Shown here: piece by piece, positions 19,462 to 27,783 of the stretch
Position numbering within the stretch: the stretch's first letter is position 1
How the letters are laid out: every line of letters begins with the position of its first letter
NCBI GenBank assembly: GCA_964575865.1
Contig: CAZNSZ010000003.1
Location: 27,266-91,265 of the forward strand
From: an uncultured Bacteroides sp.
GTDB lineage: Bacteria; Bacteroidota; Bacteroidia; Bacteroidales; GCA-2748055
Direction: 5' to 3'
DNA length: 64,000 bases
Notes under the pieces: generated by a model
What the model saw: only the letters and a program-made list of their open reading frames with translations
Databases searched by the model: none
What the model was told of the DNA's origin: nothing
Position numbers and translations under genes: made by a program

Positions 19462-20187
19462 ATGAAAAGAACCGTGATCATCTGGAGCTGTGTTCTTGCC
19501 CTCTGCGGGGGAGCCACAGGATTGAACGCCCAGAACCTGGGGGTCACCGCCACTGTTGGTCTGGGCACCTACCGGATGGATGATATGAAATACCTGCTGG
19601 AATCGATCATGGAGACCTACCCGGTGGAAGCCAGGGTGATCAGTTCATTCCCTGCCTATACCTCCACATCGGCAGGGATGGTGAAGAGGCTCTACCCGCA
19701 TGTGAAGGTTGGCGCCGCATACGGCTTTTCCACATCGGGGAGCAAGGCCGATTATTCGGATTATTCGGGAGCCATCCGGACCACCATTGTGGCGGTTTCA
19801 CACCGCCTGGGGGCACTGGCGGCCTACACCCCGTTGTCCGGGGAAAGGCTCGAACTATCGGTATACGGCAGGATTGATCTGAACATGACCCGCATGGATG
19901 TTTCCTCCTACCTGGTCGCCGCCGGTTACTCCAGCGGTGTGGAGAACAAATACAGGGCCTTCAGTCCGCAGCTCTCCGCATTCGCGGAGCTGCTGTACAA
20001 CCTCGGAAGATTTTCCCTTGGCATTGAAGGCGGGTACCTGGTGGACATCCCCGGTGAACTGAAGGGAAGCGGCGGGGGACCTGACCTGACCGATCCGGCG
20101 GGAGGAAGGGAACTGCTCACCTCGGACTGGACCGGATGGCGGACCGGCATCAAGATGATCCTCTGGCTCGATTTTCCCGAACCCTAA
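19462..20187 (+). CDS. hypothetical outer-membrane beta-barrel-like protein
   Basis: Signal peptide and an alternating hydrophobic pattern. Adjacent to the lipoprotein gene. Confidence 0.4.
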   Translation: MKRTVIIWSCVLALCGGATGLNAQNLGVTATVGLGTYRMDDMKYLLESIMETYPVEARVISSFPAYTSTSAGMVKRLYPHVKVGAAYGFSTSGSKADYSDYSGAIRTTIVAVSHRLGALAAYTPLSGERLELSVYGRIDLNMTRMDVSSYLVAAGYSSGVENKYRAFSPQLSAFAELLYNLGRFSLGIEGGYLVDIPGELKGSGGGPDLTDPAGGRELLTSDWTGWRTGIKMILWLDFPEP

Positions 20188-20960
20188 GGACCGGTGATCT
20201 GGCGCATGAAGCCACTGATCTTCTCCTCCAGAGGCCCCTCTTTCCCCAGGGCTTCGATGAAGGCACTTCCGATGATCGCACCCTGCGCATGCCGGCATGC
20301 TGTTTCAAAAGTGGAGCGGCTGGAAATTCCGAATCCAATGAGTCCCGGCAGGGAGAGGTCCATGTCTGCCAGCCTTCTGAAATAATGTTCCTGCTGTTCG
20401 CTGATCTCCCCCCGGGCCCCGGTGGTGGCTGCATCGGCAACAAGGTACAGGAATCCGCGTGAAAGCGAGGCGATTTTTCTGATCCGCTCTGCGGAGGTAT
20501 GGGGGGTGATCAGCAGGATGTGGTGGATTCCCCGCTCTTCGAATGATGTGCGGTAGTATGTTTCATATTCTTCCGGCGGCAGGTCGGGAATGATCACGCC
20601 GTCGATCCCGGCACCCATGCACCGCTTCAGGAACCGGTCCATCCCCATCCTGTGGATGGGATTGAAATATCCCATCAAAACCAGGGGGATGCGGATCTCC
20701 GGCCGGGCTTTTTCCAGCTGGTCGAACAACAGGTTCAGGTTCATCCCGTTGCGAAGGGCCGCCTGGCTGCTGTTCTGGATGACCGGCCCGTCGGCCATGG
20801 GATCCGAAAACGGGATCCCCACCTCCACCATATGGGCTCCGGATCCCTGCAGGGCCCTCAGCATTGGCAGCGTATCATTCAATCCGGGATACCCGGCGGT
20901 GATGTAAACCGAAAGGATGCCTGACTTTTTCTCCTGAAATAAGCGGTCTATTCTGTTCAT
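20184..20960 (-). CDS. trpA: tryptophan synthase alpha chain
   Basis: VEVGIPFSDPMADGPVIQ motif. Last gene of the trp operon. Confidence 0.9.
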   Translation of the reverse strand: MNRIDRLFQEKKSGILSVYITAGYPGLNDTLPMLRALQGSGAHMVEVGIPFSDPMADGPVIQNSSQAALRNGMNLNLLFDQLEKARPEIRIPLVLMGYFNPIHRMGMDRFLKRCMGAGIDGVIIPDLPPEEYETYYRTSFEERGIHHILLITPHTSAERIRKIASLSRGFLYLVADAATTGARGEISEQQEHYFRRLADMDLSLPGLIGFGISSRSTFETACRHAQGAIIGSAFIEALGKEGPLEEKISGFMRQITGP

Positions 20961-20970
20961 GGCATATCAT

Positions 20971-22161
20971 TCATAATCCAAGACTCCTGATGTAGGTCTC
21001 CATGTCCTTGTCCCCCCTCCCTGAAAGGTTGACCACCACGGTATCCTGCTCACCCGGCTGCAGCTTGTCCAGAACAGCCAGCGCATGTGCCGTTTCCAGG
21101 GCCGGGATGATCCCTTCCAGCCGGGTACAGCGCAGTGCCGCCTGCAGGGCCTCCTCGTCGGTGGCGGCCAGGACCGTTGCCCTGCCGGATTGTGCCAGCC
21201 AGGCATGCAGCGGTCCAACCCCGGGATAATCCAGCCCGGCGGAGACGCTGTAGGGTTCGATGATCTGTCCGTCGTCGTCCTGCATCAGCAGGGTCCTGCT
21301 CCCATGGATGATCCCCACCGAGCCCAGCAGTGAGGTGGCCGCGGTCTGTCCGCTCCCGATACCGAGCCCGGCCGCCTCGGCCGAGATCAGCCGGACCCGT
21401 TCATCATCCAGGTAATGGTAATAGGCACCTGCCGCGTTGCTGCCCCCTCCCACACAGGCCACCAGGTAATCGGGATGGTCCCGTCCGGTCTTTTCCTTCA
21501 GCTGCACCTTCAATTCCTCGGAAATCACGGACTGAAAGCGGGTCACCATATCGGGATAGGGATGGGGGCCCACCACCGATCCGATGATGTAATGGGTATC
21601 GACGGGGTTTCGGATCCAGTCCCGGATCGCTTCATTGGTGGCGTCCTTCAGTGTCCGGTTCCCGCTGTAGACCGGGACCACCGTGGCTCCCAGCATCTTC
21701 ATCTTCTTTACATTGGGGGACTGCCGTTCCACATCCAGGGCCCCCATATAGACGATGCACTCCACTCCTGTCATGGCACAGACCGTGGCGGTGGCGACAC
21801 CGTGCTGACCGGCGCCTGTTTCTGCAATGATCCTGCTTTTGCCAAGCTGCCTGGCCAGGAGGATCTGACCGATGGTGTTGTTGATCTTGTGGGCCCCGGT
21901 ATGGTTCAGGTCCTCCCGTTTCAGGAAGATCCGGGTCCGGTAGTGAGCCGACAGCCTCTCCGCCTCATAAAGCGGGGTGGGGCGGCCGGCGTAATCCCGA
22001 AGCAGCTGCCTGAACCTCTCTCGGAACGTTTCCGATCCGATGATCTCCAGGTAGCGCTCCTCCAGCTCCCGGATATTGGGAACCAGCATCTCGGGCACAT
22101 AGGCACCCCCGAATTCCCCGTAGAATCCTTTCCGGTCCGCATGGTATCTCATTTCGCTCAC
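20971..22161 (-). CDS. trpB: tryptophan synthase beta chain
   Basis: PLP-lysine motif [11 protein letters not shown], plus GGGSNA. Confidence 0.95.
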
Positions 22162-22165
22162 TTTT

Positions 22166-22930
22166 TCAGTTCAACGGTTTTCTGATTGCATCAATAAATG
22201 GTTTCAGCAGCTTAACATCCTTGATCCCCGGCGACAACTCGAACCGGCTGTTCAGGTCCACTCCGGACAAGGCAGGGTGCCCCAGCTGCCTTACCCGCTC
22301 CGCATCCTCCGGTCCGATCCCCCCTCCCAGCAGAAAGGGCAGGCTGATGTCCATCTGCCCGAGAAGGTTCCAGTCAAATGGGATTCCGCTGCCTCCCGAA
22401 CCGCTGCTCCCGCTGTCAAACAGCAGGTAATGGACCACCCCCACAAAATCCGAAGGAAGGTTGGTTCCGCCGGAGCGGATTCGGGCTGCTCCTGTGTCCC
22501 GCAGGAAGGCCTCCCCCTTCCCCCCGGCATGGATGGCTTTGATCAGCGGGATCCCCGCATCGGTGAGTTCCCGGCAATAGGCGGGAGATTCGGATCCATG
22601 CAGCTGCACCAGGTCAAGCGGACACGATTCGAACAGCTTCCGGACCCGGGTGACCGGTTCATCCACGAATACCCCCACCCTGGCGGAACCCGCCCCGGGG
22701 ATCCGGAAGAGGGCCGGATCGGGGGCCTCCCCCACATACCTGGGCGATCCGGGAACGAAGATATACCCTATGAAATCGGGATCAAGGGCGCATACCTCCT
22801 CCACATTCCCGGGCTGCATAAGCCCGCAGATCTTCACCTTCAGGGGCCTGCCCGGATTTCCGGACGGCCATGTGGCTTCAGGAACTTCCATTGATCCCGT
22901 CTTGTCTTGTTTCTTCCCTTTTCCTTTCAT
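22166..22930 (-). CDS. trpF: phosphoribosylanthranilate isomerase (with ~30-aa Lys-rich N-terminal extension if the ATG at 22930 is used)
   Basis: KVKICGL core. The ATG at 22930 overlaps the trpC stop in an ATGA arrangement. Confidence 0.8.
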
Positions 22931-23733
22931 TCACCGTGGCTTTCTGTTCCGGACCGCAGGTCCCGGATGAACTCCCCGCAGGCCAGTCCGGGATCATCCT
23001 GTTTCATGAACCTTTCTCCCATCAGGAAGAGCGAATAACCGGCCCGGTGAAGCCGGCGGACCTCCTCAACGGTGCCCAGGCCGCTCTCAGAGACCGCCAC
23101 CACATCCTCCGGAAGCTGCCTGATCAGCTCCATGCCCAGTTCCGTATCCACCTTGAAGGTTTTTAGGTCCCGGTTATTGACCCCTACCAGGGAAATGGAT
23201 CCGTGGTATTTGTCCAGGTCATCCAGCTCGTGTACCTCAAAGAGAACCTGTAATCCGAGGGAACGCGCCTCCAGGGAAAGCTCTTCCACCTGGCGCTTTT
23301 CCAGCATGGCCGCTATCAGCAGGACCATGTCCGCCCCGTAGGCACGCGATTCGTGAAGCTGGTAGGGATCCATGATGAAATCCTTCCGGAGCAGCACCAG
23401 CCCCTCCTCGGCCTCCCTGACCATGCGCAGGTCCCGGAAGGAGCCCCCGAAGAAATCGCGGTCCGTCAGGATACTCATGGCAGCCGCCCCCGCTCTCCGG
23501 TAGCCGGACGCCACCCGGACCGGATCGGCATCGGGGTGGATCCATCCCCGGGATGGGGACTTCCGTTTGAATTCGGCGATGATCCCCGGTCCCGCTGCAA
23601 GAGCGGCGGTATCCACTCCATTGGTCTCCCTCCCGTAATGGGGAAAGGTGCGGAGGTCGGACAGCGGCCGCCTTTTTTTCCGTTTCAGGATCTCCATCCG
23701 TTTATGCTCGGTAATGGCCTGCAGGATATTCAT
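22927..23733 (-). CDS. trpC: indole-3-glycerol-phosphate synthase
   Basis: IIAEFKRKSPS and VSESGL motifs. The start is either ATG 23733 (MNILQAI) or 23751. Confidence 0.85.
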   Translation of the reverse strand: MNILQAITEHKRMEILKRKKRRPLSDLRTFPHYGRETNGVDTAALAAGPGIIAEFKRKSPSRGWIHPDADPVRVASGYRRAGAAAMSILTDRDFFGGSFRDLRMVREAEEGLVLLRKDFIMDPYQLHESRAYGADMVLLIAAMLEKRQVEELSLEARSLGLQVLFEVHELDDLDKYHGSISLVGVNNRDLKTFKVDTELGMELIRQLPEDVVAVSESGLGTVEEVRRLHRAGYSLFLMGERFMKQDDPGLACGEFIRDLRSGTESHGE

Positions 23734-23740
23734 GGGTTGA

Positions 23741-24727
23741 TTATTGTACAAGGTTCTTAAATGTCTTCAGGGCTGCCCCCGATCTCAGGGAACGGGTCGC
23801 CCGTTCCAGGCAGTTGTCAAGTCCCTTTCCCTCATCCATGCAGAGAAGGGCCAGTGCCGCGTTGGCGATCACCACATTTTCCTGGGCTTCGGTCCCCCGT
23901 CCTTCCAGGATATCCAGGAACACCCCGGCTGCTTCCTCCACGCTGTCCCCCCCGCGGATCCGGGATGGATCGATCCTTTCCATGCCCAGGTCTGCGGGAA
24001 CCAGGCTTTTTTCGGATCGCCGGGTAAGGGCCCGGAACGGGCCTGTCAGTGAGATCTCGTCATAACCATCCAGGGCGTGGATGATGCAGAAATTCTTTCC
24101 CGATCCCTGGTAGAGGTAGTGGTAGATCCGGGCCACATCCAGGCTGTAAACACCCACCAGCTGATTGGGAGGGAACGCTGGATTGACCATGGGACCCAGC
24201 ATGTTGAAAAAGGTCTTGATGCGGAGGCTGCGCCTTACGGGTGCCACATTTTTCATGGCGGGATTGAAGAGCGGCGCATGGAGAAAACAGATGTTGTAAC
24301 GGTCCGTTTCCCGCTTCAGCCGGTCCGGATCGCTGGTGAAGCGGTAGCCGTAATACTCCAGTACATTGGAGGAGCCGCAGGCGGAAGAGACACTGTAGTT
24401 CCCGTGCTTGGCCACCTTCTCCCCCGCCCCTGCCACCACGAACGCGGCCAGGGTCGAGATGTTGAAGGTATTCTTCTCATCTCCGCCTGTACCACAGACA
24501 TCGATGGTATTGAATCCCGACAGGTCCACCGGGCTGCACAGCTCCAGCAGTGCATCCCTGAATCCCGCAAGCTCGTCCACCGTGATGCTGCGCATGAGGT
24601 ACACCGTTATGAAAGCCGCCATTTCGGCATCGTTGTATTTCCCCCCGGCCATGTTCCGGAGCACCGTTTTGGCCTCCTCCTTTCCGAGGGTCTTCTGATC
24701 GAACAGGTATTGCAGGATCTCTTTCAT
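23741..24727 (-). CDS. trpD: anthranilate phosphoribosyltransferase
   Basis: DVCGTGGDEKNTFNISTLAAFVVA motif. Confidence 0.9.
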   Translation of the reverse strand: MKEILQYLFDQKTLGKEEAKTVLRNMAGGKYNDAEMAAFITVYLMRSITVDELAGFRDALLELCSPVDLSGFNTIDVCGTGGDEKNTFNISTLAAFVVAGAGEKVAKHGNYSVSSACGSSNVLEYYGYRFTSDPDRLKRETDRYNICFLHAPLFNPAMKNVAPVRRSLRIKTFFNMLGPMVNPAFPPNQLVGVYSLDVARIYHYLYQGSGKNFCIIHALDGYDEISLTGPFRALTRRSEKSLVPADLGMERIDPSRIRGGDSVEEAAGVFLDILEGRGTEAQENVVIANAALALLCMDEGKGLDNCLERATRSLRSGAALKTFKNLVQ

Positions 24728-24739
24728 CGTTGTTGTTGC

Positions 24740-25333
24740 TTATGGTGACGCCGGACGTGAGGGATGCCTCAGCCAGTTCAGGATCATTCTTCCCCCGTAT
24801 TCGGTGAGCACTGACTCGGGATGGAACTGGACCCCGCGTACGTCATGTGTTCTGTGCCTGATGGCCATGATGGTTCCCTCGTCATTCTCAACGGTAATTT
24901 CCAGTTCCCCCGGCAGGCTTTCGCGGTCAGCCACCCAGGAGTGGTAACGGCCTGCCTCAAATTCCGCCGGGACCCCTTCCAGCAGGTAGTCCCCCGGGAC
25001 CACCTGCTTCATCTTCCCCACCACACCGTGGTATACCCTGGCCAGGTTGGTCAGGGTTCCACCGTACGCTTCGGCGATGGCCTGGTGACCCAGGCAGACG
25101 CCAAGGATGCTCTTTTCGGGACCGTACCGCCGGATCAGGTCAAGGGTAATGCCCGCTTCCACGGGTATCCCGGGACCCGGACTGATCACGATCTTCCCGA
25201 AGTCAGCCACTTCATCCAGGCTGATCCGGTCATTGCGCCTGACCACCACCTCCGTTCCCTCCACCCTTTCCATGTACTGGACAAGGTTGTAGGTAAAGGA
25301 GTCATAATTATCCACCACCAGTATTTTCATCAC
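24740..25333 (-). CDS. trpG: anthranilate synthase component II (glutamine amidotransferase)
   Basis: ILGVCLGHQAI and GVQFHPES class-I GATase motifs. Confidence 0.9.
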   Translation of the reverse strand: MMKILVVDNYDSFTYNLVQYMERVEGTEVVVRRNDRISLDEVADFGKIVISPGPGIPVEAGITLDLIRRYGPEKSILGVCLGHQAIAEAYGGTLTNLARVYHGVVGKMKQVVPGDYLLEGVPAEFEAGRYHSWVADRESLPGELEITVENDEGTIMAIRHRTHDVRGVQFHPESVLTEYGGRMILNWLRHPSRPASP

Positions 25334-25336
25334 ATT

Positions 25337-26758
25337 CTATTTCAGGTCAGACATTTTTCTGGCCATTTCAATGGCCGATTTCAGGGCTGCAAGCTTGTTG
25401 TTCACTTCCTGGAGTTCCCCCTCCTCGGTGGATTCGGAAACCACCCCCGCACCGGCCTGGTAATAGAGCCTGTGGTCCCGGGAGAGGAACGAGCGGATCA
25501 TGATGGCATGGTTGATGTCCCCGTTGAAGCGGATGAATCCGATGGTCCCGCCATAGTAGCCGCGCCGTTTGCCCTCGTACTGGTCAATCAGTTCCATGGC
25601 CCGGTACTTGGGTGCCCCTGAAAGGGTACCGGCCGGAAACGATTCCGCCATGATGCGGATGGTATTGGCCGTGTCGGGCAGGATCCCCGATACCCTGGAG
25701 ACCATGTGGATCACATGGGAATAGAACTGTATCTCCCTGTACTCCTCTACGGTTACCCTGGAGGTGGTCCGGCTCAGGTCGTTCCGGGCCAGGTCCACCA
25801 GCATCACATGCTCTGCATTCTCCTTTTCATCCCTTGACAGCTTCCTGGCCAGTTCCTGATCCTCCATATCATTCCCTGTCCTCCTGAAAGTCCCTGCGAT
25901 GGGATTGATGTACGCCTTTCCCCCCTTCACCTCGATCTGCGCTTCCGGAGAGGATCCGAAGATCCTGTAGTCGCCGTAATCGAAATAGAAGAGGTAGGGC
26001 GAAGGATTGATGGAACGGAGCGCACGGTAAACATTGAACTCATCTCCGGTGAAGGCCTGGGAGAACTGCCTGGAAAGGACGATCTGGAACACATCCCCCC
26101 TGTGGCAGTGCGCTTTTCCCCGGGTCACCATTTGCCGGTAATCGTCATCCGTCAGGTTTGAAGTTTCGTCCCCCTCGGTATCGAATCCATAGGTGGCAAT
26201 GTTCCGGTTATGCAGCAGTGCCGCCACATGCCCGATCTCGCTCTCCCCTCCGTTGACCAGGTGTTCGAAGAGCACCAGTTCATTGGTCAGGTGGTTGATC
26301 GCCAGCACGAATCTGAAAAAATCGTAACGGATCTCCGGGATCCGCTCACCCGGTGGCTGATCGGAGCTGAACCTGATCTGTTCGAAGTATTCCACTGCGT
26401 CGTAGGTACAGTATCCGAAAATCCCGTCCACCATCATCTCCGCTCCCCCTTGCTCCATCTCGAAACTGGACAGGAACTGGTTCAACAGGTCCACCACCGT
26501 CTGCTCCCCGTCCACCACGGTTACCTGCGGGGAGTGACCGGGCAGGTCTGTGGTGGCCCTCCCCTGTTCCACCCTGAAACCGGCGATGGGATCCAGGCAG
26601 ATGAATGAAAATGAATTCTCCTTGCTGTGATAGTCAGAACTTTCCAGCAAGAGTGCATTGGGATAGATATCCCTGACTTTTAAATAGATACTTACCGGCG
26701 TGATGATATCTGCCAGTATTTTGCGCCTTTCTACCCTGACCGGTACCCGTTTCATCAT
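25337..26758 (-). CDS. trpE: anthranilate synthase component I
   Basis: Chorismate-binding C-terminus with FPAGTLSGAPKYRAMELI and GAGVVSES. Confidence 0.9.
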   Translation of the reverse strand: MMKRVPVRVERRKILADIITPVSIYLKVRDIYPNALLLESSDYHSKENSFSFICLDPIAGFRVEQGRATTDLPGHSPQVTVVDGEQTVVDLLNQFLSSFEMEQGGAEMMVDGIFGYCTYDAVEYFEQIRFSSDQPPGERIPEIRYDFFRFVLAINHLTNELVLFEHLVNGGESEIGHVAALLHNRNIATYGFDTEGDETSNLTDDDYRQMVTRGKAHCHRGDVFQIVLSRQFSQAFTGDEFNVYRALRSINPSPYLFYFDYGDYRIFGSSPEAQIEVKGGKAYINPIAGTFRRTGNDMEDQELARKLSRDEKENAEHVMLVDLARNDLSRTTSRVTVEEYREIQFYSHVIHMVSRVSGILPDTANTIRIMAESFPAGTLSGAPKYRAMELIDQYEGKRRGYYGGTIGFIRFNGDINHAIMIRSFLSRDHRLYYQAGAGVVSESTEEGELQEVNNKLAALKSAIEMARKMSDLK

Positions 26759-26814
26759 TTGTTGTTATCCATGTGATTAATTCGTATCATATATCCCTGA
26801 TCCGCAGGGTGCAC

Positions 26815-26845
26815 AAAAAAAAAGGCTTCCGCCGAAGTGGAAGCC
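26815..26845 (-). terminator. intrinsic terminator of the trp leader (attenuator)
   Basis: Minus strand reads GGCUUCC-AC-UUCG-GC-GGAAGCC (26845 to 24) followed by U9 (26823 to 15). It ends 56 nt before the trpE ATG. An A4 run precedes the stem. Confidence 0.75.
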
Positions 26846-26875
26846 TTTTGTATCGTTGTGCACAACGGGCTGGCC

Positions 26876-26935
26876 CTATGCTCCGGCATTTCGGAAACAG
26901 GAGTGCCACCACCAGTTTGTGCGGATCAAGGTCAT
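26876..26935 (-). CDS. trp operon leader peptide (19 aa, MTLIRTNWWWHSCFRNAGA)
   Basis: Hand translation of the minus strand: ATG ACC TTG ATC CGC ACA AAC TGG TGG TGG CAC TCC TGT TTC CGA AAT GCC GGA GCA TAG. The three consecutive Trp codons are at 26906-26914. Confidence 0.7.
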   Translation of the reverse strand: MTLIRTNWWWHSCFRNAGA

Positions 26936-27021
26936 TTGAGGTTCTGATTTGCCTGTCAAATTAAAGGAAAGATTTTAAATCTTCCAAATTTCATTACTTT
27001 CAACCTGCAAAGTGATGCATC

Positions 27022-27783
27022 ATGGCCGTGAAAATCCTGAGAAACTTCCTGGTCTTCTTCTCCGTCTGGCTGGCAGTCATGCTGATCTACACACTAACAC
27101 ACGGGGTCAATGACCTGGAGTACCTGTGGAAGTTTTCGCTCCTTCCCGGGGCATTCCTGGGCGTGATTGCTGTCCTGGCCACTGCGCTCCAGCAAATGTT
27201 TGCCGTAAAGAAAGGCATCAACTGGGTGTTTCTGGGCTTTGCGGTGGCACTGGACCAGGGGATCAAGATCTATCTCTTCTCCATCGACTGGCAATCCCTC
27301 TCCATCCCGCTGATCGAACCGGTTTTTTACATCGAGCCCGCCCAGAACACCCTGGGCTCTTACCTCTGGGTGCTCCTGGGGCTGAAGAAAGGATCGCACC
27401 TGGTCAATATCATCCTGTTCAGCCTGATCGGGGTGGTGTTCGTCGAAGTGTGGAGGTTCTATGTGAGCCGCAAGAGGAACAGCTTCTGGATCAACGGCTT
27501 CATTCACCTGTTCCTGGCGGGGCTGGGTGCCAATCTGATCGATAATGCCGTCTGGGGTGGATCCCTGGATTATGTGACCATCAAACCCTTTTACACCTTC
27601 GACCTGAAAGACCTCTACATCACCCTGTGCGAGCTGTTCCTGCTGACGGAGCTGGTGGACAACAGGCTGCTGAAAAGGTTCCTGAACATGCCCCGGGAAG
27701 ACAGCAGGAAACTGAACCGGGATTTCATTGACTTCGTCCGGCGCGACTTCGGGGTCGGTAAAAAGGATCCGGAGGATCAGTGA
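27022..27783 (+). CDS. signal peptidase II (LspA)-family membrane protein
   Basis: ALDQGIKIYL, NTLGSY, GANLIDN and FDLKDL segments parallel the LspA DQxxK, NxGxxF, GNxxDR and FNxAD regions. The C-terminal tail is charged. Confidence 0.5.
   Translation: MAVKILRNFLVFFSVWLAVMLIYTLTHGVNDLEYLWKFSLLPGAFLGVIAVLATALQQMFAVKKGINWVFLGFAVALDQGIKIYLFSIDWQSLSIPLIEPVFYIEPAQNTLGSYLWVLLGLKKGSHLVNIILFSLIGVVFVEVWRFYVSRKRNSFWINGFIHLFLAGLGANLIDNAVWGGSLDYVTIKPFYTFDLKDLYITLCELFLLTELVDNRLLKRFLNMPREDSRKLNRDFIDFVRRDFGVGKKDPEDQ

Follow-up and report, generated by a model that had tools for sequence, protein, structure and literature searches.

A divergent Bacteroid-trp-type leader as a probable ribosome-mediated attenuator of the trpEGDCFBA operon in an uncultured Bacteroides sp.

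The window analysed here, a 64,000-nt stretch of DNA from an uncultured Bacteroides sp., carries seven ORFs on its minus strand (20184..26758) that NCBIfam identified as trpE (26758-25337), trpG (25333-24740), trpD (24727-23741), trpC (23751-22927), trpF (22930-22166), trpB (22161-20971) and trpA (20960-20184). This is the trpEGDCFBA gene order proposed in an earlier sequence-only reading of the same DNA, which had also placed a tryptophan attenuator in front of trpE. Upstream of trpE and on the same strand are a short leader ORF, whose stop codon lies 118 nt from the trpE ATG, and an intrinsic terminator located between the two. The gene upstream of the leader is on the plus strand, starts at 27022 and is divergent from it.

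The leader ORF (26876..26935, minus strand) is trpL-like. It encodes MTLIRTNWWWHSCFRNAGA in 19 codons followed by TAG, with the ATG at 26935-26933 and the stop codon at 26878-26876, and reads ATG ACC TTG ATC CGC ACA AAC TGG TGG TGG CAC TCC TGT TTC CGA AAT GCC GGA GCA TAG. The Trp codon triplet UGG UGG UGG (TGGTGGTGG; 26906..26914, minus strand), the presumed sensing site, is invariant in the genus alignment A1. When the minus strand was re-read, the ORF, the three TGG codons and all other coordinates of the sequence-only reading proved correct. A longer ORF starting with TTG (MTGKSEPQM...) was rejected because its start falls within the -7 box of the candidate promoter. No Shine-Dalgarno sequence is evident by eye ahead of the leader ATG, and to our knowledge Bacteroidota do not rely on Shine-Dalgarno-led initiation.

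The nonamer TGGTGGTGG occurs 7 times in the 64,000-nt window against 0.87 expected, mostly within genes, and for this reason proves nothing by itself. As judged from sequence comparison, the signal is the conserved in-frame context of the nonamer and not the nonamer itself. A TrpE search yielded 80 Bacteroidota loci, 79 of them usable, from many Bacteroidales metagenome-assembled genomes (MAGs) and from Tenacibaculum, Draconibacterium and Geofilum; the nearest relatives by this search are Bacteroidales/Bacteroidota MAGs. At ~70 of the 79 usable loci, trpE is preceded by a short ORF that contains WWW, in most cases as NWWW, and then by a hairpin and a T-run, so that both the leader ORF and the terminator, which the earlier reading expected to recur in relatives, were found there. 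To score the reading frame, we counted an ATG located 3-14 codons upstream in the UGG frame, with no stop between and a stop <=20 codons downstream. An ATG...UGG-UGG-UGG...stop frame is present in 69 of 70 distinct Bacteroidota trpE leaders, the sole exception having a GTG start, and in frames 1 and 2 the count is 0 of 70. This result represents a coding signature that goes beyond a conserved RNA motif. The aligned trpE upstream regions of relatives therefore keep the Trp-codon run, and keep it in frame 0. Among the 39 genus sequences the start is ATG in 38 and GTG in one. The N-terminal codons of the Bacteroidota leaders vary freely while the frame stays open, and the peptide outside WWW is unconserved across the phylum.

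A candidate promoter lies ahead of the leader. The Bacteroidota promoter consensus is TTTG / TAnnTTTG, and a candidate -7 element, TTAATTTG (26957..26964, minus strand), matches TAnnTTTG at 7 of 8 positions, with a candidate -33 element, TTTG (26985..26988, minus strand), 20 nt upstream of this -7-like box. TTTGA(C/T) is located 22-27 nt ahead of the leader ATG in 39/39 genus sequences. From these elements we predict a transcription start near 26950, a 5' UTR of ~15 nt and an attenuated RNA of ~130 nt. In searches of sequencing runs, the leader sequence was found only in metagenome DNA runs; three metatranscriptomes returned nothing, and one oligo-dT sediment RNA run contained fragments of relatives only. 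The candidate promoter is part of a block of ~50 nt at 26955-27005 (of the GAAAGTAATGAAATTTGGATTAATAGAAATCTTTCCTTTAATTTGAC type) that is near-invariant in 38 congeners, in which TrpE is only ~80% identical. This seems more than a promoter alone needs. The block is situated between the leader and a conserved divergent membrane-protein gene (27022-27783, with a weak lspA-like match) and could contain a second promoter or an operator.

The intrinsic terminator, AAAAGGCUUCCAC-UUCG-GCGGAAGCCUUUU followed by U9 (26815..26849, minus strand), was detected by a terminator scan and has a fold energy of -16.4 kcal/mol. It reads AAAAGGCTTCC-ACTTCGGC-GGAAGCC-TTTTTTTTT from 26849 to 26815, with 26849-26837 paired to 26832-26820. 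Its parts are those described from the sequence alone: a GGCUUCC (26845-26839) / GGAAGCC (26830-26824) stem with a C(UUCG)G apex located exactly 30 nt past the leader stop, an AAAA run (26849-26846) before the stem, and T9 at 26823-26815, ending 56 nt before the trpE ATG at 26758. In the genus alignment, 98.5% of terminator cells are paired and three pairs have changes on both sides. No other gene can own this terminator, since the upstream neighbour is divergent.

The leader RNA ahead of the terminator forms a 1:2 structure (26922-26860, minus strand; -28.2 kcal/mol) that consists of (i) P1, in which GCACAA (26917..26922), just before the Trp codons, pairs with UUGUGC (26860..26865) in the MFE fold, (ii) P2, in which the Trp codons (26914-26905) pair with GCCAGCCCG (26874-26866) in the unmasked fold, and (iii) hairpin A (26875..26901; -10.1 kcal/mol alone), the inner part, in which CCUGUUUCCG pairs with CGGAGCAUAGG. 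The arms of hairpin A are 26901-26892 (5') and 26885-26875 (3'), the latter holding the stop codon. The 3' strand of P1 can alternatively form a local palindrome, GUUGUGCACAAC (26867-26854). In the genus alignment, 98.5% of P1 cells are paired, with changes on both sides at two of five pairs, and 89% of hairpin A cells are paired, with no both-side changes; covariation within the genus is thus seen in P1 and in the terminator. For the off-state structure as a whole, 94.8% of cells in the 39 genus sequences are paired, compared with <=56% when the partners are slid. The leader fold reaches -73.3 kcal/mol against -50.3 kcal/mol for shuffled sequences (z = -5.6), and a cross-lineage swap test of region 1 against region 2 gave p <= 6.5e-4. 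In a different fold, RNAalifold prefers to pair the Trp codons (CUGGU, UGG) with the invariant CCGG and CCG (A1 columns 24-33 / 45-56; in the window, 26915-26906 with 26894-26883), and CCGGAG would then have three possible partners: the Trp codons, the hairpin A 5' arm and the terminator apex.

Octamer UUGUGCAC was noted earlier on both sides of the terminator and put forward as a source of alternative pairings. Both copies are present (26865-26858 and 26816-26809), and the UUGUGC of the upstream copy is the 3' strand of the conserved closing helix P1 with GCACAA. The downstream copy is unconserved in relatives, and the antiterminator that emerged from our analysis is built instead from UGCCGGAG and CUUCGGCG.

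In this antiterminator, region 2 (UGCCGGAG; 26881..26888, minus strand) is the 5' strand. It ends 3 nt ahead of the leader stop codon and includes CCGGAG, which is invariant in the genus. The 3' strand is the terminator apex (CUUCGGCG; 26830..26837, minus strand), a placement supported by the swap test described below. The best duplex of the two has an energy of -12.5 kcal/mol. Region 2 has two mutually exclusive partners, the terminator apex and the hairpin A 5' arm. When a stalled ribosome was masked on the second or third Trp codon and the transcript was ended before the 3' arm, region 2 (CCGGAG, 26886-26881) paired with CUUCGG in the 5' arm and apex of the terminator (26837-26832), at -16.2 kcal/mol. 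With a mask ending at 26902, representing a stall on the first Trp codon, hairpin A persisted and the pairing was only partial. An antiterminator can thus be drawn, and of the mutually exclusive 1:2, 2:3 and 3:4 helices that the earlier reading had proposed to look for, the folds support counterparts in the 1:2, region 2:apex and terminator pairings.

In full-length MFE folds with the ribosome mask, the antiterminator never appeared and the terminator was always preferred. We did not count this result against the model since E. coli trpL, a validated attenuator, behaves identically. The E. coli trpL control sequence had 100% identity in the best-listed records and >=99% identity in 5,023 of 5,423 matching records. 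With the same procedure its MFE fold was always the terminator, and its shortened fold was the known 2:3 helix at -15.6 kcal/mol, an energy nearly identical to that of the window antiterminator. In thermodynamic terms the window terminator matches or exceeds the antiterminator in stability; the switch must therefore be kinetic, as in E. coli. Compared with shuffled sequences, the duplex of region 2 with the whole terminator 5' arm is weak (z = -0.57 for the window, mean z = -1.2), and the E. coli trpL duplex gave z = -1.4.

Within the genus there is no covariation in the antiterminator, as both strands are invariant, and within-genus counts are for that reason uninformative. Across lineages, the sequences of region 2 and apex differ while their complementarity is retained. 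Region 2 and apex are CCGGAG and CUUCGG in this genus, CGGAG and CUCCG in L030, (A)CCGUGAG and CUCACGG(U) in L115 and L116b, CGUGAA and UUCACG in L112, AUCGUGA and UCACGAU in L051, GUGAGA and UCUCAU in Tenacibaculum, and GAGUUGAGC and GUUCAACUC in L063. In a swap test, the region 2 of each lineage was paired with its own apex or, by permutation, with the apexes of other lineages. Over 23 lineages the cognate pairs summed to -275.4 kcal/mol against -200.7 +/- 12.0 kcal/mol for permuted pairs, the cognate value being reached by 0 of 50,000 permutations (p < 2e-5), and with 11 thinned lineages p was 1e-4. Control swaps gave p = 0.78-0.92 for region 2 against the base of the terminator 5' arm, p = 0.40-0.63 for region 2 against the base of the 3' arm and p = 0.07-0.17 for region 1 against the apex. 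Covariation between lineages, as a comparative line of evidence, supports the 1:2 and the region 2:apex pairings. A lower-stem pairing, GGGCC:GGCUU, lacked cross-lineage support and was dropped from the model. With generally known ribosome footprint sizes, a ribosome at the stop codon would have region 2 inside its footprint in the majority of the 23 lineage representatives; leaders with longer ORFs are the exceptions.

The leader is constrained at the RNA level as well. Near-invariant blocks in the 39 genus sequences (UUUCCG, CCGGAG..UAGG, UUGUGC and CUUCGG) include third codon positions. Two leaders, L026 and L033, have lost 1 nt, which puts the ORF into another frame and places the stop a few nt farther downstream; their peptides end in ...PEHR and ...PEYR, respectively. 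The RNA motif CCGGAGnnUAGG is unchanged in both. Since it is kept despite the shifted frame, this block is constrained as RNA and not as peptide.

There are four other ways to account for these observations. The same attenuator could work through a different antiterminator pairing, for which the candidates are the pyrimidine-rich stretch or UUGUGC, both from the interval between stop codon and terminator, with the terminator base or 3' arm, and GGGCC/AGCC with GGCUU in the lower 5' arm. Masked folds of the window do also draw GGG/AGCC with GGCUUCC, and p was 0.045 when a first swap test set region 2 against the loop together with the 3' arm. However, specificity across lineages is found only at the apex (p = 0.40-0.92 for the arm bases), and we regard a different working pairing as quite unlikely. 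The RNA-level constraint could also be the mark of a structured RNA that senses tryptophan or a protein directly, in the manner of a riboswitch or a TRAP-type element, with the short ORF left untranslated: conservation of RNA is extensive, third codon positions are fixed and CCGGAGnnUAGG survives in the two frame-shifted sequences. Such a sensor would not explain why the ATG...WWW...stop frame occurs in 69/70 leaders and never in the other frames, or why the N-terminal codons vary freely with the frame still open. The leaders also have no conserved complex fold beyond the alternative hairpins and no Rfam riboswitch match, and direct sensing is in our view highly improbable.

The leader peptide could also control trpE by another route, through Rho-dependent polarity, translational coupling or a trans-acting peptide or small RNA, in which case the terminator would not be the switch. 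This possibility gains from Sinorhizobium, where a trp leader peptide and attenuator RNA are reported to act in trans (PMC7298713, PMC6614838), and a released RNA of ~130 nt could have targets here too. We nevertheless consider it very improbable, given that a canonical terminator with U9 lies between leader and trpE in nearly every lineage, that the stop codon at 118 nt from the trpE start is too far away for coupling, and that nothing of the peptide but WWW is conserved across the phylum. Finally, a chance short ORF could lie beside an ordinary hairpin. The seven copies of TGGTGGTGG in the window would fit such an accident, but across dozens of species the ORF and its frame, the helices and the position before trpE are all conserved, which makes it scarcely credible.

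We conclude that the element very probably controls the trpEGDCFBA operon through ribosome-mediated (leader-peptide) attenuation of transcription. The E. coli trpL-type logic ascribed to it by the sequence-only reading is supported, in that the ORF, the terminator and an exclusive antiterminator are all present and conserved in many Bacteroidota lineages. What the sequences show is the ORF with its conserved frame, the helices and the covariation between lineages; that the promoter is used, that the ORF is translated, where ribosomes sit on it and how it responds to tryptophan are inferred in the working model. Transcription would start probably near 26950, and a ribosome would translate the 19-codon leader while RNA polymerase proceeds. 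When tryptophan is plentiful, the ribosome would reach the stop codon (26878-26876) and cover region 2 (UGCCGGAG, 26888-26881). The terminator (26849-26820) with its U9 tract would then form, and transcription would end near 26815-26820, giving the RNA of ~130 nt. Under a shortage of charged tRNA-Trp, the ribosome would stall on UGG UGG UGG (26914-26906) and cover region 1, made up of GCACAA and the Trp codons together with the hairpin A 5' arm. The freed region 2 would capture the emerging apex (CUUCGGCG, 26837-26830), which would block nucleation of the terminator and allow read-through into trpE. With no ribosome on the leader, regions 1 and 2 would pair (-28 kcal/mol) and the terminator would form.

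The window leader shares with E. coli trpL tandem Trp codons in a leader ORF, alternative 1:2, 2:3 and 3:4 helices and a stop codon placed so that a terminating ribosome would mask region 2. Unlike E. coli trpL, which has two Trp codons, it has three, and it carries an extra closing helix, P1, around them. Its region 3 is the terminator apex, whereas region 3 in E. coli lies mostly upstream of the terminator hairpin. There is no sequence homology between the two leaders, and the E. coli leader is further set apart by the lack of a Shine-Dalgarno sequence recognisable by eye before the window ATG. The Rfam model of the E. coli element (Trp_leader, RF00513) scored the window leader at 13.4 bits (E = 2.9; gathering score 41), so we treat the E. 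coli element as an analogue and not as a relative. S. meliloti trpL (rnTrpL / peTrpL; PMC6614838, PMC7298713) likewise depends on ribosomes for trp attenuation ahead of trpE(G); it releases a short RNA and is reported to have functions in trans. Nothing suggests such functions for the window leader, because its peptide outside WWW is unconserved across the phylum.

A class of trp leaders in Bacteroidota has been described computationally. Weinberg et al. (2010, Genome Biol 11:R31, PMC2864571, Additional file 1) reported Bacteroid-trp (RF01692), a loosely conserved hairpin with at least two conserved UGG codons and an apparent role in control of trpB and trpE in Bacteroidetes, for which none had been reported earlier (PMC2864571). 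The consensus of the RF01692 model runs from AUG through UGGUGGUGG inside a hairpin to AAAAAAGGCUUGUC. The window leader has the same architecture: it lies upstream of trpE in a member of the Bacteroidota (118 nt from stop to ATG), its short ORF has consecutive UGG codons (three, in frame) within a hairpin (26922-26860), and after this UGG hairpin come an A-rich stretch and the terminator 5' arm with GGCUU..., AAAAGGCUUCC. Unlike the Bacteroid-trp model, the window genus has invariant blocks of its own, UUUCCG, CCGGAG and CUUCGG. The 2010 description names no antiterminator; for the window leader, one is proposed and tested here.

RF01692 gave no match to the window copy at E <= 10, whether 1.6 kb, 176 nt or the whole genome was searched, and scored same-genus orthologues at 24-33 bits against a gathering score of 49. 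Other Rfam searches of the leader returned just sub-threshold terminator-like matches, Phe_leader and ctRNA_p42d. We built a model, R1, from the genus alignment. R1 scored the window leader at 126 bits and found one strong match before trpE in 22 of 25 genus genomes, and RF01692 was above threshold in none. The window's own genome contains only one trp leader. In four other families of the order, R1 gave matches of 53.8, 39, 38.6 and 34 bits (G034, G031, G036 and G028, respectively; the E-values are rough), and RF01692 matched these same loci at 36-47.5 bits. As the two models meet at the same loci, the window variant is linked to the Bacteroid-trp family. Extra R1 matches in the genomes of relatives (L127-L129) were discarded as plain terminators without a WWW ORF. 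The attenuator belongs, as a divergent and unannotated copy, to a class known from computational work, and its mechanism is ordinary. The earlier remark that experimental descriptions are scarce in Bacteroidota seems justified: within a limited search, we found no experimental work on Bacteroidota trp attenuation in the literature.

A repeat search revealed a further feature of the window copy. The spacer after the terminator (26787..26817, minus strand; 31 nt) repeats the first 24 nt of the leader (26939-26916), its AUG included, in inverted orientation. The duplex of spacer and leader has an energy of -24.4 kcal/mol against -10.9 kcal/mol for shuffles (z = -4.7). Pairing between leader and spacer is not a feature of the family, with a mean z of ~0 over all 68 leaders tested; the inverted spacer is unique to the window genome, and in most congeners the spacer measures just 20-25 nt. 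In read-through transcripts, a helix of ~24 bp (-24 kcal/mol) could enclose the whole attenuator as a functional clamp, a hypothetical role that we find unlikely. If it did so, translation of the leader might be shut down from then on, the leader might be cut off at a processing site specific for double strands, or the 5' end of the trp mRNA might gain stability after the read-through decision. It is just as possible that the inverted spacer arose recently and neutrally, through template switching that duplicated sequence around the terminator palindrome.

Additional candidate leaders were observed outside the window. In the same genome, a candidate His attenuator (L131; C42:7650-7528, minus strand) consists of an ORF encoding MREYGRHSVHHHHHNGG, a terminator hairpin and a T-run, and lies ~10 nt before hisG, which is followed by hisD and a probable hisC. 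A candidate branched-chain (Ile/Leu/Val) attenuator, also in the same genome (L132; C8:42101-42232, plus strand), has an ORF encoding MLKNILHNILVVVVLVVVPGAA and a terminator and precedes ilvD and a probable acetolactate synthase gene. Neither gave an Rfam match at E <= 1. Their presence alongside the trp leader also favours the attenuator reading of the latter. At locus L130 (G028:C37:1600-3700), from another family of the order, trpE is preceded by a tandem pair of WWW leaders, MNTNRLNNYWWWQFTYSFYREEGKLS and MNNSNLHIWWWHNSGIKP, each with its own terminator and both matched by RF01692 and R1.

The mechanistic import of the window leader is small, as it would work like a textbook trp attenuator. 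What the analysis supplies is a concrete antiterminator, region 2 with the terminator apex, which was missing from the 2010 description. It also reveals that the Rfam Bacteroid-trp model misses a whole Bacteroidales genus. Taken together, the putative trp, His and Ile/Leu/Val leaders indicate, at the level of sequence, that ribosome-coupled attenuation would be routine in a phylum that initiates translation without Shine-Dalgarno sequences.
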